DNA from: an uncultured Candidatus Saccharibacteria bacterium
Lineage (GTDB): Bacteria > Patescibacteriota > Minisyncoccia > Sungbacterales > HO2-52-23
Length of the DNA: 64,000 nucleotides
Direction: 5' to 3'
Assembly: GCA_964585475.1 (NCBI GenBank)
Contig: CAZPDF010000001.1
Span: 81,337-145,336 of the forward strand
Both the position numbers and the translations under genes were made by a program. The notes under the pieces were generated by a model, which saw nothing but the letters and a program-made list of their open reading frames with translations, ran no database searches and was not told the DNA's origin. How positions within the stretch are numbered: the first letter of the stretch is position 1; every line of letters begins with the position of its first letter. Below are positions 30,434 to 39,451 of the stretch, in pieces.

Positions 30434-31905
30434 ATACAGGTATGAAAACAATTTTTATTACTATTGATGATCCGGCGGCACTAAAGAACATTTTCGGCAC
30501 CAAAGCATGGCCCGAGGTTTTGCGATCTTCCGCGGATGCCAAACTCGTGCTTTTGACGAGGCCTAGCAAAAAGGAAGCACACGAGAAGTTCTTTGTTGCG
30601 CCGAACATCGTGGTTGAAGCGCTTGATCCTGCGTTTGATTCTCTTATGTCGGGCGTAATTGCGTCTCTGGCCCGCAGCGGGATTAGAACCCATACCAATC
30701 TTTGGTCTAAAATGCGCTCTTACGAACGGGGTGATTCTGGGTTTTTGGTGACAATGTTCAAGCGGGCATATACTTTTCTTTTGGGCGGATCGTCTCTCAA
30801 TAAGAGGTTTTTGCGTCGTATCTTTCTGGGGCTTGCGCCGGCCAAAGCGACGGCCGCACTCTTTGAAAAATATCAGCCCTCGCTTCTTTTTGCGACCTCG
30901 CTCACCAACATTGATTTTGACGTGCCTATCGCGGTTGAGGCGAAAAGGCGCGGCATACGGATCGTCGGCATGGTGCGAAGCTGGGATAATTTTTCGAGCC
31001 ACGGGCTCACTCGTGTAATCCCGGATCGGTTGATCTTGCAAAATAAGTTTTTAAAAGATATGGCCGAGCGGCACCAGGCTATCACCGAAAAAGACGTGCC
31101 GATCGATATCGTTGGTTTGCCGCACTATGACATGTATGTCGGTTTTGAAAAAATGCTTGAAAGCAGAGAATCATTTTTCCAAAGGATGGGGCTCGACCCT
31201 TCAAAAAAACTGATTCTTTACGGGGCAATGGGGGATTTTCTTTTTCCGAATGAGGGGGGAATGGCCGACGTGCTTGAGGAACTGATTGACCCCGTTAGAA
31301 GTCAGACGCCAAAGGCATCTGCTTATTCCCAAGGGAATCAGACTTCTAACGGGGTTGAATCGCGGGCTATTCAAGAGCCAGCCCAAGTTCTTTTCCGCGC
31401 CCACCCAAAATTCAATAGTCCCCTTGAAAGGATGAAAGGAATGAAACATGTTAAGCCGGACAAAGACGTGTCCAATAGTACGGGCGATTTCATGAAGCAT
31501 CTTATAAATTCCATTTACCATAGTGATATTGTTGTTGCTGGCGCATCTACGATCGTGATTGATTCTATAATGTTGGCAAAACCCGTGATTTGCGTTGGTT
31601 TCGATGGCCTTGAAAAAAAGGTTCCCTATTGGACTTCGGTAAAGCGTTTTTATGACTGCTACACGCATTTTGAAGCGTTAATGGAAACAGGCAATATACC
31701 GCTTGCGAATACCAAAGCAGAATTGGCGCGTTTAATAGATGAGGCCCTCCGGCAGAAATCCTACGACCAAGAGCCGCGCCAAAAAGTGATTGATCTTTTC
31801 GTGGCGCCATTTGATGGACATTCAAGCGAGCGGCTCGCCCAAATCTTAGTCAAAGAATTTACTAGTATACGAGATGGACAGCGGATTCAACCAAAAATTC
31901 ATTGA
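30430..31905 (+). CDS. GT-B-fold polysaccharide biosynthesis protein (CDP-glycerol glycerophosphotransferase TagB/F-like or capsule-synthesis KpsS-like) with an in-frame family-B repeat
   Basis: Two Rossmann-like halves. 'FRAHPKF...IVVAGASTIVIDSIMLAKPVICV'. The family assignment is uncertain. Confidence 0.35.
   Translation: MNTGMKTIFITIDDPAALKNIFGTKAWPEVLRSSADAKLVLLTRPSKKEAHEKFFVAPNIVVEALDPAFDSLMSGVIASLARSGIRTHTNLWSKMRSYERGDSGFLVTMFKRAYTFLLGGSSLNKRFLRRIFLGLAPAKATAALFEKYQPSLLFATSLTNIDFDVPIAVEAKRRGIRIVGMVRSWDNFSSHGLTRVIPDRLILQNKFLKDMAERHQAITEKDVPIDIVGLPHYDMYVGFEKMLESRESFFQRMGLDPSKKLILYGAMGDFLFPNEGGMADVLEELIDPVRSQTPKASAYSQGNQTSNGVESRAIQEPAQVLFRAHPKFNSPLERMKGMKHVKPDKDVSNSTGDFMKHLINSIYHSDIVVAGASTIVIDSIMLAKPVICVGFDGLEKKVPYWTSVKRFYDCYTHFEALMETGNIPLANTKAELARLIDEALRQKSYDQEPRQKVIDLFVAPFDGHSSERLAQILVKEFTSIRDGQRIQPKIH
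31290..31354. repeat. Family-B palindromic element in frame in the TagF-like gene
   Basis: CCCCGTTAGAAGTCAG...GACTTCTAACGGGG. Encodes DPVRSQTPKASAYSQGNQTSNGVE. Confidence 0.7.
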
Positions 31906-33238
31906 AGGCGGCGTATGGCTTACGTTAAGCTCTTTTTTGATACGAGCAGTCGGCTTCTTTTCCGTATTCATTGTGTTGTCCAATACCGAGGTAAAAGATT
32001 ACGGACTCTACAAGCTTGTTCTTGCCGCTTTTGCTTTTCTTACCGGATTTTTTTTCAGCGGATTTGATAATCTTGTCATCAGTGATCTTGCGCGCGAGCG
32101 GGGTGAGGGAAGAATGGATCGGGTAAAGCGGCTGTTCCTCGAATACAGCGGAGTTAAGCTCCTGATCGGCGCGATCCTTTTTCTTGCGGCTTTTTTTGGA
32201 GCTCCACTGCTCGGACGCTTCGTGGATCCGGAGGTCATGCAATTTCTGCCCCTTGTATCAATTCTTTTTATTTTTTATGCCCTGGAGCGGCCGCTCAATT
32301 ATCTCTTTAATACGTATCTTAAATTCAAATACCTTGCGTTATACACTCTTGTCGAAGAGATAGGAAAGTTAGGTCTTATTCTCATATTCGTATTTTTTTT
32401 GGAGATGGGGGCCAAGGGGATTATCATTGCCGACGTATTTTCATCCGGCATTGCTTTTGTGGCGCTTCTTCCGGTGGGCGTGATCTTATTAAAAGACCTC
32501 CTGCGTTATGAAATAAGCGTCGAGAAAATGCTTTTGCCCATTATCCGGCTTCACGGAAAATGGGGAATTGCCACGCGTTATCTCGACGAAATTAAAAAAT
32601 CTATCCGGCCGTGGCTGATTAAATATTTTGTCGGAATAGAGGCCGTCGGCTTATATTCCATGGCCGAGGGCATCTATGGCCAGATAACGAATCTTTTCCC
32701 GCTGTCCAATATTCTCCTGCCCCTTCTCCCGGGCGAGATTGGTAATCATAAGAAAATTCGCGAAATACTGGTATTGGGGCTTAAATTCGGCACCCCGTTT
32801 TTTATTCTGCTGGGGGCGTCCGCGAGCGTAGCCGTAACTATACTCGTGCATCTCTTGTTTCCGAATTATATCCCGGCTTTGACCATTTTTTATATCATGC
32901 TGGGACACCTTCTCATAGCCGCGTTTGCCAATGTTCTTACCGCAATTCTTTATGCGGAGCGGCAACAGCGCGCGCAATTTGCAATAACTGCGGTTACGAT
33001 CGCTTTTATGGCAGCTACCGGAGCGTTGATGCTTTATTCTTTCGGGATTATAGGAATTGCCTTTGAATTCCTTCTGACCGCCTTTTTCTATACAGCTCTT
33101 CGAGCACGGTTTATTTTCCGCATGCGCCCGGAATTCCGCTTCTCATTGGTTGAAACTATTTTTTGGAGAAAGGCGGACCTTGATATTATCCGTCGGAGTG
33201 TTAAAATTGCTTTATACAATTTTACTAAAATCATATAG
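31874..33238 (+). CDS. Wzx-type oligosaccharide flippase (MOP superfamily)
   Basis: About 12 predicted TM helices. 'GVWLTLSSFLIRAVGFFSVFIVLS' N-terminal motif. Confidence 0.65.
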   Translation: MDSGFNQKFIEGGVWLTLSSFLIRAVGFFSVFIVLSNTEVKDYGLYKLVLAAFAFLTGFFFSGFDNLVISDLARERGEGRMDRVKRLFLEYSGVKLLIGAILFLAAFFGAPLLGRFVDPEVMQFLPLVSILFIFYALERPLNYLFNTYLKFKYLALYTLVEEIGKLGLILIFVFFLEMGAKGIIIADVFSSGIAFVALLPVGVILLKDLLRYEISVEKMLLPIIRLHGKWGIATRYLDEIKKSIRPWLIKYFVGIEAVGLYSMAEGIYGQITNLFPLSNILLPLLPGEIGNHKKIREILVLGLKFGTPFFILLGASASVAVTILVHLLFPNYIPALTIFYIMLGHLLIAAFANVLTAILYAERQQRAQFAITAVTIAFMAATGALMLYSFGIIGIAFEFLLTAFFYTALRARFIFRMRPEFRFSLVETIFWRKADLDIIRRSVKIALYNFTKII

Positions 33239-33241
33239 ATT

Positions 33242-33643
33242 ATGTATAAGGTAACAGTTGAGCAAGCGATTGTAGAAGCGTTTCGTTCCGTACCTACCGG
33301 GAATAAAAAATCGGTGATTCTTTCCGGGTCCAAGGAGGGTCCATATTCGGTCATGGCCGTAGTGGTGGACAATGTTTTATCAAAGGCAGAAGTGCATGAT
33401 GAATCCGCGGATATATGGCACGTGGTAAACGGAGAGGCGATTTTTATGATCGGGGGAGAAGTGGAAAATCCAACTCTTCATAAATCCAAAGAATGGGTGG
33501 CCGATTCAATTCGCGGCGGAATTGAATACCCGGTTAAGCCCGGCGATGTGATTGATATTCCTCCTGGCACTCCGCACCAGATTGATGCGCGCGGCAGAAG
33601 GGCAGAATTTATAATTGTTAAAGTCGATAATATTAAGTCATAG
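33242..33643 (+). CDS. Cupin-domain protein
   Basis: 'WHVVNGEAIFMIGGE...VKPGDVIDIPPGTPHQIDARG'. Confidence 0.5.
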   Translation: MYKVTVEQAIVEAFRSVPTGNKKSVILSGSKEGPYSVMAVVVDNVLSKAEVHDESADIWHVVNGEAIFMIGGEVENPTLHKSKEWVADSIRGGIEYPVKPGDVIDIPPGTPHQIDARGRRAEFIIVKVDNIKS

Positions 33644-33645
33644 TC

Positions 33646-34368
33646 ATGATTCAAAACTATAACGTATTCGCATTGATTCTTGCACGGGGTGGATCAAAGC
33701 GCGTACCGCGTAAAAACATAAAAGAGCTTGCGGGTAAGCCCTTGATTGCATATTCTATCGAGCAGGCCAAGGCCTCGCGTTACCCTGATCGTTTCATAGT
33801 ATCAACCGACGATGAGGAGATTGCGAAAGTGGCGCGAGAGTATGGCGCGGAAGTCCCTTTTATGCGGCCGGCAGAACTGGCCGGAGATGCGGTGACGGAT
33901 TTTCCGGTATTTGTGCATGCGCTTGAATGGCTCCGTGATAATGAAGGGTACCGGCCGGATATTGTCGTGCAGCTCCGGCCAACTCATCCCTTGCGAAAGC
34001 CTGAAGACATTGATCGCGCCATTGAACTTCTGGCTTCACATCCCGAAGCGGATTCGGTGCGTACCGTGAAAGAACCGGACCAGACGCCATATAAAATGTA
34101 TAAAATTGATAAACAAGGATTTCTTGAGCCGTTACTTCCAATTAAGGGCATACCGGAATCGTTTAACCTTCCGCGCCAGAAACTTCCTAAAGCGTACGAG
34201 CATGTCGGGGTAGCGGATGTTATGTGGTACAAGACCCTAATGGAGAAAAATCAGATGACCGGATCAAAAATAATCCCACTTGTGCTTGAGAATTATCCCT
34301 ATAGCGGAATCAATACTCTTGAAGATTGGGAACGTTATGAATATTGGCTAGGGAAGCACGCGATATGA
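33646..34368 (+). CDS. CMP-nonulosonic acid cytidylyltransferase (NeuA/PseF/KdsB-like)
   Basis: 'ALILARGGSKRVPRKNIKELAGKPLIAYSI...FIVSTDDEEIA'. Confidence 0.7.
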   Translation: MIQNYNVFALILARGGSKRVPRKNIKELAGKPLIAYSIEQAKASRYPDRFIVSTDDEEIAKVAREYGAEVPFMRPAELAGDAVTDFPVFVHALEWLRDNEGYRPDIVVQLRPTHPLRKPEDIDRAIELLASHPEADSVRTVKEPDQTPYKMYKIDKQGFLEPLLPIKGIPESFNLPRQKLPKAYEHVGVADVMWYKTLMEKNQMTGSKIIPLVLENYPYSGINTLEDWERYEYWLGKHAI

Positions 34369-34979
34369 TAATTTATCTTGTTCGTCACGCCGAATACGTG
34401 CCGGTCCAGGGAGGAAGTCATTTGGATAATGAAAAAGCTCCGCTGTCTTCTTTGGGGAAGAAACAGGCGTTTGCGCTCGGACGGAAGCTTAAGCGGTACA
34501 AAATCGACAAAATTTATTCAAGCGTTCTTGCCCGCGCCAAGGAAACGGCATCTTTTATCGTATCTTCCACCGGCGTGCCGGTTGTTTATGATGAGCGCCT
34601 GAATGAGCAGATAATCTCCCTTCATTCAACCGATCGGTCCGCCATAAAAAAAATGAAGCGAAGGGTGAGGGAGGATCATGCGTTCGCTCCACCCGATGGG
34701 GAATCATTAAATCAGGCGGCAGATCGATTTATCCGTGTTCTTCACGAAGTTGTTCGATCGGGCTTATCGCAGGTGGTTTTTGTGTCTCACTGCAATGTAA
34801 TTCAAAGCGCTCTTATCACGCTTTTTTCGCTAAATGAGATTCCAAAGATTGATGAGGCCTCCGTCACCGCGTTTTCTTACGAGAGCGGGAAATTTTCTAC
34901 TCTCTTCGTCAATAAAAAGACATTTTCCTTACCCGTTATTTTTAGGAAAATAAGGCGGAAATTAGGGCTTCGGGAGTAA
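34365..34979 (+). CDS. Histidine-phosphatase (phosphoglycerate-mutase-like) family protein
   Basis: 'MIIYLVRHAEY' RHA motif. 'VSHCNVI'. ATGA overlap with the upstream gene. Confidence 0.5.
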   Translation: MIIYLVRHAEYVPVQGGSHLDNEKAPLSSLGKKQAFALGRKLKRYKIDKIYSSVLARAKETASFIVSSTGVPVVYDERLNEQIISLHSTDRSAIKKMKRRVREDHAFAPPDGESLNQAADRFIRVLHEVVRSGLSQVVFVSHCNVIQSALITLFSLNEIPKIDEASVTAFSYESGKFSTLFVNKKTFSLPVIFRKIRRKLGLRE

Positions 34980-35017
34980 AACTTTTTTCTCTTCAAACCA
35001 GTTTTAAATAGTGTAAC

Positions 35018-36109
35018 ATGCATATAAAAGAAAAGCTTAAAAGGATTCTTAACGGCTTGCCCTCAAGAGTTAAGATCGGAAAGCGCTTTGTCGGGCCGCA
35101 CGAGCCCATATTTGTGATTGCGGAAGTTGGCATAAACCATAATGGCGATGTTGCCACCGCAAAAAAACTTATTGACGCGGCTAAAGAAGCTGGCGCCGAT
35201 GCGGTTAAGTTCCAGAAGCGGACCACCGAGGAAATTCTTACTAAAGAGGGTCTGGAAAAACCGTATACTTCTCCGCATGCGTTTGCTCCGACTTACGGAG
35301 AGCATAGAAAGAAGCTGGAATTTTCGGAAGATCAGTATCAGGAACTGACAGCTTACGCAGAGTCGCGTAGCATCCAGTTTTTTGCAAGCGTGTGGGACCA
35401 GAAAAGCGCGGATTTTATGGGTGCGCTCAATGTGGATGCATATAAAATTCCGTCCGCGGATGTAATCAATACGCCGCTGCTTGAGTACGTCGCAAAAAAG
35501 CAAAGGCCGGTTCTTCTTTCGACCGGCATGTCCACTTTTGATGAGATTGAGGAAGCGGTGGACGCGGTCCTAAAACATAACGAGCGCCTGATTATTTTCC
35601 ATTGCCTTTCGCTTTATCCTTCGCCGGAGGATAAAATAAATCTTGATTTCATGGACGTGCTTCGCGAAAGATTTAAACCTCTGCCCGTGGGTTACTCTGG
35701 GCATGAGACGGATCTTTTACCCACGATTGCCGCTGTCTCTCGCGGCGCATGTATTGTCGAGAGGCATCTTACTCTTGATAAAAAAATGAAGGGATCGGAC
35801 CATGCGGCATCCCTTGAGCCGCAGGAGCTGAAGGAACTTGTTACCTCTGTAAGGCGGATTGAGAAAATCCGGGGGATGCCGGAGAAGATAATGTATAGCG
35901 AACTGATTCCGCTTCGCGAGAAACTTGCTAAAAGCGTTGTGGCAAAAACCCTGATCCCGGCGGGGATGGTCATAACTTACGAGATGCTTGCTGTAAAAGG
36001 CCCCGGGAGCGGCATTAAGCCGAGTTTGATGCAAAATCTCGTCGGGCGAGCGGCAAAACGCGATATCGCCGCGGATACGCATCTTCCGCAGGATGCCCTC
36101 AATTGGTGA
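35018..36109 (+). CDS. neuB: N-acetylneuraminate (nonulosonic acid) synthase, NeuB/PseI/LegI family with SAF domain
   Basis: 'FVIAEVGINHNGDVATAKKLIDAAKEAGADAVKFQ'. C-terminal SAF 'AKTLIPAGMVITYEMLAVKGPGSGIKP'. Confidence 0.8.
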   Translation: MHIKEKLKRILNGLPSRVKIGKRFVGPHEPIFVIAEVGINHNGDVATAKKLIDAAKEAGADAVKFQKRTTEEILTKEGLEKPYTSPHAFAPTYGEHRKKLEFSEDQYQELTAYAESRSIQFFASVWDQKSADFMGALNVDAYKIPSADVINTPLLEYVAKKQRPVLLSTGMSTFDEIEEAVDAVLKHNERLIIFHCLSLYPSPEDKINLDFMDVLRERFKPLPVGYSGHETDLLPTIAAVSRGACIVERHLTLDKKMKGSDHAASLEPQELKELVTSVRRIEKIRGMPEKIMYSELIPLREKLAKSVVAKTLIPAGMVITYEMLAVKGPGSGIKPSLMQNLVGRAAKRDIAADTHLPQDALNW

Positions 36110-36120
36110 AGTCCCCCAAA

Positions 36121-36290
36121 GACGAAATTTAATAAAAGGGGGCGATGCCCCTTTTGTGATTCGTCTATTTTGACTTGTCCCATTAGAAACGGAGTTTCTA
36201 ATGGGATTGCCAGCGATGCCCCACGCTTTCTTCAAGACGTTTGGTGACGTGTGCGGCGGCTTGATCGCTACCGCCAAATTGTTTGATTTT
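36121..36290. repeat. Left copy of a roughly 100-bp direct duplication (terminator hairpin + 3' end of the radical-SAM gene) flanking the DUF5678/protease cassette
   Basis: Matches 37255..37420 at about 85% (AAAAGGGGC-ATCGCCCCTTTTGTGATTC...ATTGCCAGCG.TG.CCCACGCTTTCTTC.AGACGTTT..TGACGTGT). Carries the frame of pseudo-ORF 36198..36440(-), which ends '...HVTKRLEESVGHRWQSH' versus the intact '...HVRKRLEESTGHRWQSK'. Confidence 0.55.
36124..36145 (+). terminator. Rho-independent terminator hairpin after neuB
   Basis: GGGGGC-GAT-GCCCC followed by TTTT. Confidence 0.55.
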
Positions 36291-36311
36291 GTTTCTTAGT
36301 TCTGGTAATAT
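36283..36311 (+). promoter_or_regulatory. Sigma70-like promoter (TTGATT-17-TAATAT) for the DUF5678-like gene
   Basis: Located 7 nt upstream of the ATG at 36318. Confidence 0.4.
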
Positions 36312-36317
36312 CATAAT

Positions 36318-36515
36318 ATGGCGATTGATTGGACCAAAATTTACGAAAAATATAAGGGTCTCTGGGTTGCGCTTCTTGATGATGAAAAGACGGTCGTAGG
36401 AAGCGGCAGGACGGCCAAAGTAGCATGGGAAGAGGCCCAAAAAAAAGGGTACAAAAAGCCCATCCTTACTCGTATGCCAGAAAGGTTGGTCACGTACGTA
36501 GGTTTTGGATTATGA
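36318..36515 (+). CDS. Small DUF5678-like protein (65 aa)
   Basis: 'MAIDWTKIYEKYKGLWVALLDDEKTVVGSGRTAKVAWEEAQKKGYKKPILTRMPE' resembles DUF5678 family members from memory. ATGA overlap with the downstream protease gene. Confidence 0.4.
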   Translation: MAIDWTKIYEKYKGLWVALLDDEKTVVGSGRTAKVAWEEAQKKGYKKPILTRMPERLVTYVGFGL

Positions 36516-36907
36516 GATTTCAATACAAGAAATACGGCCCGGGCGTTTTACGTCCGGTGATACCTGTTGAAATATCATATAAAGGCCGCTCCGTTCCCTA
36601 CGAGGTGCTTGTAGATTCCGGAGCGGATTTTTGTATTTTTGATGCAGAGATAGGCGAGCTTCTTGGTATCAATATTGCAGACGGTGAACCGCAAACAGTT
36701 GGCGGGATCACCGGGGCCCTAGAAACTTATTATGTACACATGGTTACTTTGAAGGTCGGCGGATGGCCGCATCCTGTAAAAGTTGGTTTTCTTCCAAATA
36801 TTGCCCGTCTCGGTTATGGCGTAGTGGGACAAAGGGGCTTTTTTGATATTTTTGTCGTGAAGTTTGATCTGCTCAAAGAGGAGATTGAGCTTAAAGAGAG
36901 AAAGTAA
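36512..36907 (+). CDS. Retropepsin-like (clan AA) aspartyl protease
   Basis: Active-site motif 'VLVDSGADFCIF' (D-S/T-G-A). About 130 aa single-domain. 'GINIADG...GGITG' flap-like segment. Confidence 0.6.
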   Translation: MRFQYKKYGPGVLRPVIPVEISYKGRSVPYEVLVDSGADFCIFDAEIGELLGINIADGEPQTVGGITGALETYYVHMVTLKVGGWPHPVKVGFLPNIARLGYGVVGQRGFFDIFVVKFDLLKEEIELKERK

Positions 36908-36923
36908 GAATAACCTGAATACC

Positions 36924-37136
36924 ATGAGAGATAAAACAACTCTTCAGCTTGTTAAACAGTTTAAAATTGATATTCAGAAAGGATTTGGAAAAAGGGTTTG
37001 TAAAGAGCTTCACCTTGAATGTGCAAATTGTAAAGCACAGGTTTTGATAGGGCATCTAAACTGGTATATTGATCTTCTGGACTGGAGCATTACTCAAGAG
37101 AAAAAGAAGAGGCAGCCCCAAAAGAAGAGAAGTTAA
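36924..37136 (+). CDS. Hypothetical small basic protein (70 aa) in the cassette
   Basis: ORF with ATG at 36924. Lys-rich C-terminus. No recognised motif. Confidence 0.25.
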   Translation: MRDKTTLQLVKQFKIDIQKGFGKRVCKELHLECANCKAQVLIGHLNWYIDLLDWSITQEKKKRQPQKKRS

Positions 37137-37257
37137 ATAGGTCCCTCTACCAAGGTCTTTCATTATGGACATGGGATGGGCACCTGAAATCTCTTGCTTT
37201 CTTGGCTTTTTACTAACTGATACCCAGGAGACCAACTTCTCGGCTATTGGAGAATTT

Positions 37258-37282
37258 AAAAAAGGGGCATCGCCCCTTTTGT
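37258..37282. terminator. Bidirectional terminator hairpin (GGGGC-ATC-GCCCC flanked by A/T runs)
   Basis: AAAAAAGGGGCATCGCCCCTTTT sits between the cassette and the 3' end of the minus-strand radical-SAM gene. Confidence 0.55.
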
Positions 37283-37297
37283 GATTCTTAATGGAAT

Positions 37298-38842
37298 TTA
37301 TTTGGATTGCCAGCGGTGACCCGTGCTTTCTTCCAGACGTTTCCTGACGTGTTCCGGTGGATTAACCGTCTCCCAAAACCAGTCGCGGATTTCCACAATC
37401 ATTTCTTTCGGCACGGTGGTATTTATCATAACTCCGTTTTTCCAGTTCATGATATCGGGGTCGAAATCAGACGGTAAATGTTTTCCTTTACAATCTGGGC
37501 AATCGAGCGCCATGTCATGTAGCTGACTTCCGGGAAAAGGAATGGGTATGAAAGGTGTGACGTACGCTGCACCCGCATCAATCAGTTTTCGTGCGAGTTC
37601 AACCGACATCATAATTTCCTTGAAGCTTTCATGTGGGAATCCGATCATCATATTGACCGGGCAGATGATGCCGATTTCTTTGGCGATGCGGGTGAGTTTC
37701 AACACGTCATGCTTCTCGAGCGTGAGTTTAGCGGTCGCGTATTTATCAAGAATCCTCTGTGATCCGGATTCTACCGGAAAGACAATCTGTCGAAACTTAG
37801 AATCATAGAAAAGCTGCAAATACTCGCGGTCCGGCTCAAGCGTTCCCGCTTTGGTCTTCTGGAATATGTGGACTAGATTCACGCCATTTACATCCGCAAT
37901 AGTAAAGTCAAAATCTCGCACCAGGGTGAAGATTTCTTTAGTCCGTGGTTTCTTGGCAAGCAAACTGTCGTCTTCGACAAGGACCATTTTTACGCCTAGT
38001 CTGCGAAGTTCTTCGAATTCAGCGATTACTCGGGAAACTGATTTCAAGCGAAGTTCGCCAATATCACCCGAAAGCTCACCCCTGCCGAAACGCTCTTTTG
38101 AAATGTGGCAGTAGGTGCATTGGAAAGGGCATCCGCGCGAGGTCATTATAGGCGCATAGCGGTATTGATTCCCTGTGAGGTTCACGCCGTGCGGGGAGGC
38201 AATGCGTTCGTACTTATCAAAAGGAAGTTTGTCCCAGGCAGGCATCGGCAAATCATCAAGGTTGGTGTAGGTGGTATCCGGTTTGGCCCGCGAGATTAGC
38301 GGTTTACCCGCGCGGAAATAAATGGTTCCGTCGATGTTCTCATAGGATGACCCTTGCATGAAGCGCCTGGCGATTTCTTGCATCGGTTTCTCGCCTTCGG
38401 TAGTGCAGACAAGATCGAAAGACCCGTTCTTCATGAAGCGCGGCCAGAGATTTCTCGCGTTTACTCCGCCGGTCACGACCAAAGTTTCCGGATTCACGCG
38501 CTTGGCGATCTCCGCCACCCTGAATGCCATATTGGTCTGCGGCGTGAAATTGGAGTTGATGCCCACGATATCGTAATTTTTCTTCGCCAGAAATTCTTCA
38601 ATTCGTTCCCACGACATTCCGATTCTCGTAAGACCATTTGGCTGCATAACCGAATTGTAGAATGTATTCTCAAGCGTATCCTCGGGCGTACCAACCGTTG
38701 CGTCCACTATATCCGAGTCAATTCCTATTTGGCGCAAGGCCCCGGCAAGATAGAGCGGCCCGAGCGAGCCGTCAGGGCGAGGCGTCTCAATAGGCATTAA
38801 CTGATTTGGAGGGTAGATGAAAAGAACCTTCGGCTCGCGCAT
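37298..38842 (-). CDS. B12-binding radical SAM enzyme (class B radical-SAM methyltransferase-like)
   Basis: N-terminal B12-binding 'NYDIVGINSNFTPQ...LVVTGGV'. CxxxCxxC 'SRGCPFQCTYCH'. Confidence 0.75.
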   Translation of the reverse strand: MREPKVLFIYPPNQLMPIETPRPDGSLGPLYLAGALRQIGIDSDIVDATVGTPEDTLENTFYNSVMQPNGLTRIGMSWERIEEFLAKKNYDIVGINSNFTPQTNMAFRVAEIAKRVNPETLVVTGGVNARNLWPRFMKNGSFDLVCTTEGEKPMQEIARRFMQGSSYENIDGTIYFRAGKPLISRAKPDTTYTNLDDLPMPAWDKLPFDKYERIASPHGVNLTGNQYRYAPIMTSRGCPFQCTYCHISKERFGRGELSGDIGELRLKSVSRVIAEFEELRRLGVKMVLVEDDSLLAKKPRTKEIFTLVRDFDFTIADVNGVNLVHIFQKTKAGTLEPDREYLQLFYDSKFRQIVFPVESGSQRILDKYATAKLTLEKHDVLKLTRIAKEIGIICPVNMMIGFPHESFKEIMMSVELARKLIDAGAAYVTPFIPIPFPGSQLHDMALDCPDCKGKHLPSDFDPDIMNWKNGVMINTTVPKEMIVEIRDWFWETVNPPEHVRKRLEESTGHRWQSK

Positions 38843-38997: not shown

Positions 38998-39216
38998 ATG
39001 AATACCATAACAATTCCTAAAAAAATAGCATCCCGAGATGATCTTATAGTTATTCCACGCAGGGAGTACGAGGCGCTTTTGGAATCGAGAAAGTTTAAAG
39101 AGTTTTCGCCAACTGGGGTACAAAAAAAAGCATTGGCAAGGGCAGAACAGAATTTTCGTAAAGGAAAAACCCTCTCGTATTATGGACTTGTCAAAAAGTT
39201 GGGGTTTGCAGATTGA
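38998..39216 (+). CDS. AbrB/MazE/SpoVT-type antitoxin
   Basis: 'TITIPKKIASRDDLIVIPRREYEALLE' swapped-hairpin-like. Precedes and overlaps the RelE-like gene. Confidence 0.45.
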   Translation: MNTITIPKKIASRDDLIVIPRREYEALLESRKFKEFSPTGVQKKALARAEQNFRKGKTLSYYGLVKKLGFAD

Positions 39217-39451
39217 CCCAGGTGTTTTTAAAACTTTCAAGCGGACACCTCGGCATGACGCCGAGGTTCTTCTTGAAGTAATGCGGCTTCTGCCAGTCAA
39301 TCCTTACTTCGGTGATATTCAGAAGATGAAAGGCGAAGATAACGCGTGGCGCCGCCGCATAGGTTCATATAGGATTTTCTATCGAATCAAAATCACCGAA
39401 AAAGTAATCCTGGTATTTCACCTCGAACGGAGAACTTCAAAAACGTATTGA
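39182..39451 (+). CDS. RelE/ParE-family type II toxin
   Basis: 'NAWRRRIGSYRIFYRIKITEKVILVFHLERRTSKTY' is a classic RelE C-terminus. The true start may be internal. Confidence 0.7.
   Translation: MDLSKSWGLQIDPGVFKTFKRTPRHDAEVLLEVMRLLPVNPYFGDIQKMKGEDNAWRRRIGSYRIFYRIKITEKVILVFHLERRTSKTY

Follow-up and report, generated by a model that had tools for sequence, protein, structure and literature searches.

How does a small gene pair that encodes no recombinase come to lie between two convergent genes, with a copy of one neighbour's 3′ end on either side, and what keeps it there? The locus that raises this question lies between a sialic-acid synthase (NeuB) gene and a radical-SAM gene in a stretch of 64,000 nt from an uncultured Candidatus Saccharibacteria bacterium (assembly GCA_964585475.1, contig CAZPDF010000001.1, positions 81,337 to 145,336 of the forward strand). 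This whole stretch is called the window below, and coordinates given without a locus handle refer to it. An earlier note, made from the sequence alone, had described here a mobile cassette of three genes. We find a conserved mobile unit of ∼640 bp with two genes, made up of an extended −10 promoter, a gene for a small DUF5678 protein and a gene for an aspartic protease. We propose that this recombinase-less pair was inserted by the host with a long target duplication and that it persists as an addiction-type module, an explanation which, taken whole, we put at a probability of roughly 60%.

In the window, direct copies of one sequence (36134–36278 and 37259–37378) bracket ∼1 kb of inserted DNA. 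The right copy includes the 3′ end of an intact gene on the − strand (37298..38842), which encodes a B12-binding radical-SAM protein of 514 amino acids (aa; Pfam Radical_SAM and B12-binding) and is the right neighbour of the insertion site. The similarity is carried by two core blocks, whose identity of 83–86% agrees with the ∼85% of the earlier note. Block 1, a terminator hairpin, pairs 36134–36162 with 37259–37287 (29 nt, 86%), and block 2, the radical-SAM 3′ end, pairs 36199–36252 with 37299–37352 (54 nt, 83%; blastn E=6.5e-13). The limits first proposed for the repeats, 36121–36290 and 37255–37420, proved too generous, especially on the right, although the repeats themselves exist. Identity in register was 47/60 over 36199–36258 and 13/30 over 36254–36283 (shuffle p ∼0.02), and was lost by ∼36279. 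Both hairpins are bidirectional, without assigned strand, and were recovered by a terminator scan. The left one (AAAAGGGGGCGATGCCCCTTTT; 36134..36162, fold z=−4.2) starts the duplicated target, and the right one (37259..37287, fold z=−4.4) is the functional radical-SAM terminator. Low-complexity or chance repeats were ruled out by E-values down to 1e-36 together with two kinds of control, described below, and the repeats are real, as had been claimed.

On the − strand, the real radical-SAM gene ends in HVRKRLEESTGHRWQSK and the left copy in HVTKRLEESVGHRWQSH, each followed by a stop. The left pseudo 3′ end (36199..36278, − strand) is the decayed copy of the target; it aligns with block 2 of the right copy and with the 3′ ends of the corresponding gene in two relatives, L098 and L099. 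Its pseudo C-terminus is clear for 17–20 codons and faint or degenerate up to ∼27, which bears out the terminator hairpin and ∼25 duplicated codons noted before. The right copy (37299 to ∼37378, − strand) holds the last 17–27 radical-SAM codons within the intact gene. The target duplication in the window thus defined measures ∼95–150 bp and the insert ∼1.0 kb. The ∼640-bp module entered the radical-SAM gene 17–27 codons before its end, as part of an insert that also holds a third open reading frame (ORF3). Because the insertion duplicated its target, terminator hairpin plus gene 3′ end, the radical-SAM gene stayed intact; the left target copy decayed to a pseudo C-terminus. The NeuB gene (+ strand) and the radical-SAM gene (− strand), which converge on ∼1.2 kb of intervening DNA, were already convergent prior to the insertion.

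Between its two blocks the left copy has a stretch of its own (36163..36198, no strand), 25 nt extra relative to the right copy across the alignment gap. It includes a perfect hairpin with a 12-bp stem (36172–36198, CCCATTAGAAAC-GGA-GTTTCTAATGGG), present in the left, decayed copy only. One arm of this palindrome looks like the adjacent pseudo-stop region copied in inverted orientation, as though snap-back templated synthesis had made it.

The relatives L098 and L099, whose radical-SAM proteins are 85% and 75% identical to that of the window, each have only one gene 3′ end; a hairpin comes next and a convergent glycosyltransferase gene after it, and the cassette is absent from both. Their single 3′ end and hairpin could be aligned to both window copies; the neighbouring gene there differs and is not NeuB. 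In a four-way alignment of the two window copies with L098 and L099, each window copy retained different bases in common with the relatives, as would be expected if both copies came from one local sequence.

This result bears on a different origin of the left copy. A donor fragment or circle might have carried the module beside its own radical-SAM 3′ end and entered by Campbell-type or homology-facilitated illegitimate recombination, leaving the left copy as donor DNA. Bacteria of the Candidate Phyla Radiation (CPR) are thought to be naturally transformable, and a repeat-flanked module can loop out as a circle with one repeat and re-enter a related genome. It also suits donor DNA that the window repeats are not identical, that every repeat found is at least ∼25 nt, the minimum for RecA-type pairing, and that nested duplicates at L004 and L105 (below) are hard to derive from a single simple event. 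However, such recombination cannot build the structure at a new, unrelated site, and the duplicated sequences differ with each context and always match local genes. The different ancestral bases that the window copies share with L098 and L099 are as expected from one local sequence, and perfect or near-perfect short repeats at L083, L091 and L047 resemble fresh duplications. We consider donor DNA an unlikely source of the left copy and retain host-made duplication of the local target.

Scars of this kind were met again at independent sites in other loci, which strengthens the view of the earlier note that the repeats are insertion scars. After removal of near-identical loci, the pair was found in 81 distinct genomic contexts, almost all in CPR/Patescibacteria, and we compared the 500 nt upstream with the 500 nt downstream of the pair context by context. 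Direct repeats flanked the module in 14/70 contexts, compared with 7/266 random pseudo-inserts in the same loci (p=3e-6) and 14/171 real genes of 300–900 nt from the same loci (p=0.014). Repeats abutting both ends were detected around 8 of the 70 modules and none of the 171 control genes (p=3.8e-5), and repeats with E<1e-6 around 12 and 2, respectively (p=9e-6). Inverted flanking repeats were not enriched (3/70 versus 5/266 pseudo-inserts).

These direct repeats are 25–143 nt long, 75–100% identical and usually abut the module (for example 27/27 at L083, 34/35 at L091, 28/29 at L047, 63/67 at L016 and 70/79 at L040). Judged by their near-identity, the scars at L083, L091 and L047 are apparently young. 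The repeated sequence is different at each locus and is copied from local flanking genes. In at least seven cases (the window, L040, L069, L083, L027, L086 and L004) one copy runs over the 3′ end or stop codon of a flanking gene that is intact, the other copy being a truncated duplicate. In 8 of the 14 repeat-flanked contexts the insert begins 19–77 nt ahead of the DUF5678 ATG and ends 0–11 nt past the protease stop; no conserved termini were found at the insert ends. Strong (terminator) hairpins are present in 4–6 of the 14 targets and may point to hairpin-provoked breaks, but this number is too small to be compared with the frequency expected of gene 3′ ends.

Two classical kinds of mobile element were considered and rejected. 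The unit is not an insertion sequence or transposon: it contains no transposase, its insert ends vary (19–77 and 0–11 nt) and inverted repeats are not enriched. Nor is it an integron cassette with attC or other site-specific att sites, the repeats being locus-specific copies of local genes and no integrase signal being present among the neighbours. Since the module encodes no nuclease and other cassettes bear the same scar, we infer that the host performs the insertion. Module DNA would spread between naturally transformable CPR cells, and host break-repair or replication template-switching, for instance the fill-in of a long staggered break, would insert it, often at a terminator hairpin. The module itself would supply no enzyme for this step.

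The fate of the duplicates is illustrated by two related loci. At L105:2650–4573, a metagenome contig that represents a population variant of the abundant L004-type organism, both copies of a duplicated gene for a 72-aa PF02594 protein are intact (98% over 234 nt) and flank a Zn-ribbon ORF cassette (73–75 aa), a tRNA-synthetase pseudo 3′ end and the module. The first copy of this gene is internally deleted at L004:2866–4640, and comparison of the two loci therefore shows how duplicates decay. The duplications are nested in both, the Zn-ribbon cassette being flanked by copies of the tRNA-synthetase 3′ end (∼110 nt, 90%) and by copies of the whole 72-aa gene. That cassette entered likewise, with a duplication of ∼340 nt.

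Control genes in L071, L064 and L092 are also repeat-flanked; at L071:6080–6835, for example, a repeat of 162 nt at 78% surrounds a 251-aa gene. This suggests that insertion with a long duplication is not confined to the protease module. The pair could then be an ordinary accessory protease with its helper, not selfish at all, and the repeats incidental to a general shuffling of cassettes in CPR bacteria. The 14 repeat-flanked control genes, including that of L071, fit such shuffling, as do the repeats around the Zn-ribbon cassette of L004/L105 and a membrane-protein ORF at L001, and the module's GC content follows that of its host, suggesting long residence. Yet repeats abutting both ends are strongly enriched for the module over control genes. 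Moreover, the module is scarce and patchily distributed (151 matches in 185,579 genomes) and nevertheless 53–89% identical across many candidate phyla and 81 contexts, and the 4-nt overlap and invariable pairing of its genes are typical of addiction modules. For these reasons we regard an ordinary accessory role as improbable, more so than donor DNA, and return to the inserted addiction-type module.

What constitutes this module was established by comparison with other loci. ORF3 (36924..37136, + strand; 70 aa, with a Lys-rich tail) lies inside the repeat-bounded insert and is a real gene. It belongs to a separate, unannotated Cys-rich family of 74 cluster representatives (E≤1e-3; ∼55–100 aa) with three invariant cysteines (Cx6CxxC) and a LIGYLNWYxDLLEW-like motif. 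No ORF3 homologue was present beside the pair at any of the 92 other pair-bearing loci examined. We therefore class ORF3 as a passenger or separate cassette that does not belong to the conserved module, and the three-gene cassette of the earlier note was rejected in favour of two genes. A gene for a HepT-like ribonuclease toxin lies beside one ORF3 homologue (L101). The spacer of 122 nt that leads from ORF3 to the right repeat (37137..37258, no strand) contains no recognisable gene, family or repeat.

The first gene of the pair (36318..36515, + strand) encodes the 65-aa DUF5678 protein, the putative inhibitor or antitoxin partner. It matches PF18929 (E=7e-8) at 32.6 bits, above the gathering cut-off of 23.2, over profile positions 2–43 of 49; the family had been named correctly, but under the accession PF18928. 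It has 558 homologues. AlphaFold2 predicted a small alpha-beta-beta-alpha-beta domain (predicted local distance difference test score, pLDDT, 79) followed by a tail with values <50. This tail (residues 53–65, MPERLVTYVGFGL) is strongly conserved, with P54, Y60 and G62 invariant, though predicted to be disordered, and opens with a near-invariant M53–P54 step.

The second gene (36512..36907, + strand) encodes a 131-aa retropepsin-fold aspartic protease, the putative effector or toxin. It matches PF13650 (Asp_protease_2; E=7e-9) at 36.6 bits (gathering cut-off 24.3), whereas the PF13975 and RVP profiles scored below their cut-offs; of the two clan-AA profiles suggested earlier, PF13650 and PF13975, only the former was thus upheld. 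The D35-S-G-A-D motif is invariant in 20 aligned homologues, which favours an intact active site, as first proposed, and the D-S-G-A sequence implies a homodimeric active site as a prediction. The AlphaFold2 model (pLDDT 89) gave Foldseek probabilities of 1.0 to the HIV-1, HIV-2 and SIV proteases, to Rickettsia APRc (5c9f) and to Ddi1. Among the PADLOC models, the protease weakly and partially matched PDC-M08B (E=2e-5) and PDC-M52B (E=5e-3); no PADLOC model matched DUF5678 or ORF3, and the PDC-M08 and PDC-M52 component sets were incomplete, with B only.

The two genes overlap by 4 nt (ATGA) in the window, as they do in 71/95 loci, and the translational coupling read earlier from this overlap was confirmed. 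Expression of the protease from the −1 frame as a Gag-Pro-like frameshift fusion was considered and rejected: no slippery heptamer precedes the stop, and the ATGA overlap provides a simpler coupling. The pair has a promoter of its own, as had been noted (36283..36311, + strand). Read from the sequence, it comprises a −35 element, TTGATT (36283–36288), a 17-nt spacer and the extended −10 element TGGTAATAT (36303–36311); a generic promoter scan did not call it. The −10 element ends 6 nt before the ATG, which implies a near-leaderless mRNA. In 47/65 related loci the 40 nt before the DUF5678 ATG contain the motif TGnTAnnnT, which in most cases starts at −15 to −17; a control window has it in 1/65, and the promoter therefore travels with the genes.

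Pairing is strict. DUF5678 lies immediately upstream of the protease in 89/89 loci with assessable upstream DNA, which answers the call for a survey of co-occurrence. The protease has >1100 homologues; the best 120 listed are 70–89% identical and, judged by the names of their sources, come from many CPR candidate phyla. When one genome per GTDB species was scanned (185,579 species-representative genomes), 151 matches were obtained, almost all in Patescibacteria. The claim of mobility was borne out by the 81 contexts and by neighbours that differ even between closely similar copies: proteases 82–85% identical to that of the window adjoin other genes, DpnI or FtsEX. The 134 neighbour genes comprise 159 Pfam families, most of them with housekeeping functions (ribosomal proteins L5 and S8, SecY, aminoacyl-tRNA synthetases, DnaB, glycosyltransferases), with an rve_3 integrase-core domain in only 2 and a reverse-transcriptase domain in only 2. 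The module neighbours the L5 gene in four loci, the S8 gene in two and the SecY gene in three (loci within L013–L092); adjoined by such genes, it can sit within a ribosomal-protein operon.

Two loci hold a second copy a few kb from the first. At L046:6580–7168 this is a divergent pair of DUF5678 and a protease with a DTGA motif, from which it follows that the partnership is old. At L042:7114–7523 the divergent second copy has an intact DUF5678 gene and a protease truncated after 69 aa. A different arrangement was observed at L001:3093–4471, where a 46-nt promoter-like repeat occurs three times and brackets a 134-aa membrane-protein gene and the adjoining pair, resembling a two-cassette array. 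The pair there consists of a DUF5678 shortened to 49 aa and a protease. The L001 locus carries an acyl-CoA dehydrogenase and a 3031-aa protein, and its host may not be a CPR bacterium.

What keeps the pair in place? Most likely it persists as an addiction-type (toxin–antitoxin-like) module, which is plausible but unproven. An addiction role fits because the small gene comes first, coupling is by ATGA, the promoter is private, pairing is strict, the unit is rare and patchy and found in many contexts, and one copy has lost the protease. The dimeric aspartic protease would act as the harmful effector, and DUF5678, made first and in coupled stoichiometry, would restrain it. The conserved disordered C-terminal tail of DUF5678 would probably lie in the substrate cleft of the protease; this tail is a natural candidate for a cleft-occupying segment.

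The roles may instead be reversed or non-toxic. DUF5678 would then be a substrate or toxin that the protease neutralises or matures through cleavage at the conserved Met-Pro of the tail, or the pair would serve as a sensor for abortive infection, its protease being set free when a phage infects the cell. Retropepsins prefer hydrophobic-Pro sites, and the near-invariant M53–P54, just ahead of the conserved disordered tail, resembles these; small upstream toxins exist elsewhere, for example HigB and HicA. For a defence role speak the weak protease matches to the defence candidates PDC-M08B and PDC-M52B and the location of some copies near DpnI, Fic or reverse-transcriptase genes. On the other side, the neighbours are mostly housekeeping genes and DUF5678 has no PADLOC match, and the L042 copy shows the order of decay expected if the protease is the harmful partner, in a single case. 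We think it doubtful that the roles are reversed or defensive, and keep to a protease effector restrained by DUF5678.

Several observations weigh against the explanation as we have framed it. As regards insertion, no clean empty site was found in the search of relatives that the earlier note had called for: an exact look-up of the NeuB protein returned the same genome only, a metagenome scan for the L004-type locus gave 4 contigs, all occupied by the module, and the closest radical-SAM relatives carry a GT1 glycosyltransferase neighbour instead of NeuB. Because the window repeats are only 83–86% identical, the left copy could be donor DNA that arrived with the insert. In the window the right repeat begins only after 351 nt (ORF3 and spacer) beyond the protease stop, where 0–11 nt are typical elsewhere; with so atypical a gap, the window event was either composite or two-step. 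Repeats are detectable in only ∼20% of contexts. Other small cassettes, at L004/L105, L001 and L071, have long duplications too, so the mode of insertion is not specific to the module, and the module was not found in INPHARED phages, PLSDB plasmids or IMG/VR. As regards function, no known toxin or antitoxin family includes either protein, DUF5678 lacks a DNA-binding fold, and the neighbourhoods are mostly housekeeping genes, not defence islands.

The wider surroundings of the locus are as follows. The NeuB-type sialic-acid synthase gene (35018..36109, + strand; Pfam NeuB E=1.4e-83, NCBIfam NeuB_NnaB E=9e-104), the left neighbour of the insertion site, is part of the surface-glycan cluster in which the insertion lies (31874–36109; polysaccharide flippase, cupin, CMP-sugar synthetase (CTP_transf_3), histidine phosphatase and NeuB genes). 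Radical-SAM relatives occupy glycosyltransferase clusters of differing composition, and the region of insertion is therefore variable. Just past the radical-SAM 5′ end, at 38998–39451, a 72-aa ORF is followed by an overlapping gene for an 89-aa ParE-family toxin (PF05016, E=1e-6); addiction-type modules would on this basis lie on both sides of the radical-SAM gene. Flanking direct repeats were looked for around this pair of genes, and none were found. In L102, an independent Logan assembly of the same organism, the contig ends inside the protease gene, a break that may reflect repeat- or polymorphism-induced assembly failure at the module.

The mode of mobility is already known; the cargo, the lineage and the number of replicate events are new. 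To our knowledge, in the 25 years since it was recognised, insertion with long target duplication has come to light only in scattered restriction-modification cases, with its mechanism still unsolved, and we know of no aspartic-protease toxin–antitoxin pair that has been characterised. Our literature search returned no paper on the function of DUF5678, none on PDC-M08 and none linking retropepsins to toxin–antitoxin systems. One tiny, recognisable unit here gives more than 12 independent insertion junctions, some apparently fresh, and these come from the CPR, a lineage with poorly understood gene exchange. The junction sequences, hairpin targets and series of decaying duplicates form a data set for the mechanism of insertion. 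Should the pair prove to be an addiction or defence module, it would bring new effector chemistry and would assign a function to a protein family with >1000 members in groundwater metagenomes. More tentatively still, though with somewhat better odds than any of the alternatives above, the pair may be the first well-replicated case of a general, recombinase-free route of gene acquisition in the CPR, and at once a new kind of addiction module. On this view, small cassettes with their own promoter would enter the cell as DNA and be inserted at broken or stalled sites, frequently terminator hairpins at the ends of genes, with target duplications of 25–340 bp, and a propeptide-like small protein would plug the active site of the protease toxin.

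Among known systems, the manner of insertion most resembles that of restriction-modification systems, for which insertion with long and variable target duplication has been described (Nobusato et al. 2000 Gene 259:99; Furuta, Abe & Kobayashi 2010, PMC2853133), with repeats spanning start or stop codons and a bias to naturally competent species (PMC2853133, PMC3874152). Furuta et al. 2010 defined such insertions by a complete unit, an insert <20 kb, a duplication >30 bp and no other mobility genes; in the window the insert is ∼1.0 kb, the duplication ∼95–150 bp, and no integrase or transposase lies inside. In both, a small selfish unit lacks transposase, integrase and terminal repeats, and the repeats (∼30–400 bp in restriction-modification cases) copy the local target, frequently extend across a neighbour's start or stop codon and have a site-dependent length. 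Unlike those systems, the present cargo is not restriction-modification and has no nuclease able to make a staggered break, and its hosts are CPR/Patescibacteria. Whereas the restriction-modification cases concern different systems, each seen once, here one ∼640-bp unit has been inserted in many independent events (14 scars).

The layout of the pair is that of a type II toxin–antitoxin system: two small, adjacent, co-oriented genes, the smaller one first, coupled by a 4-nt overlap under their own promoter, patchy in distribution and found in variable contexts. As in such systems, the C-terminal tail of the small partner is conserved and predicted to be disordered, and one decayed copy keeps the small gene only. 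The families are different. Type II systems have a toxin of a recognised superfamily and an antitoxin with a DNA-binding domain, whereas the large partner here is a retropepsin-fold aspartic protease of no known toxin family, and DUF5678 lacks a ribbon-helix-helix, helix-turn-helix, AbrB or Phd-type DNA-binding fold.

The protease shares with APRc (PDB 5c9f), the retroviral proteases and Ddi1 a single-domain retropepsin fold of ∼130 aa, with a target-normalised template-modelling (TM) score of ∼0.66 to HIV-1 protease and of 0.65 to APRc; its sequence similarity to solved proteases is insignificant (E ∼0.2). Unlike them it is cytoplasmic, has neither membrane anchor nor polyprotein context and always occurs with a dedicated small partner. 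Finally, its weak matches to the B components of PDC-M08 and PDC-M52 show that related small aspartic proteases are found in multi-gene defence-island candidates, although these matches are partial and weak and DUF5678 has no counterpart among the PADLOC models.

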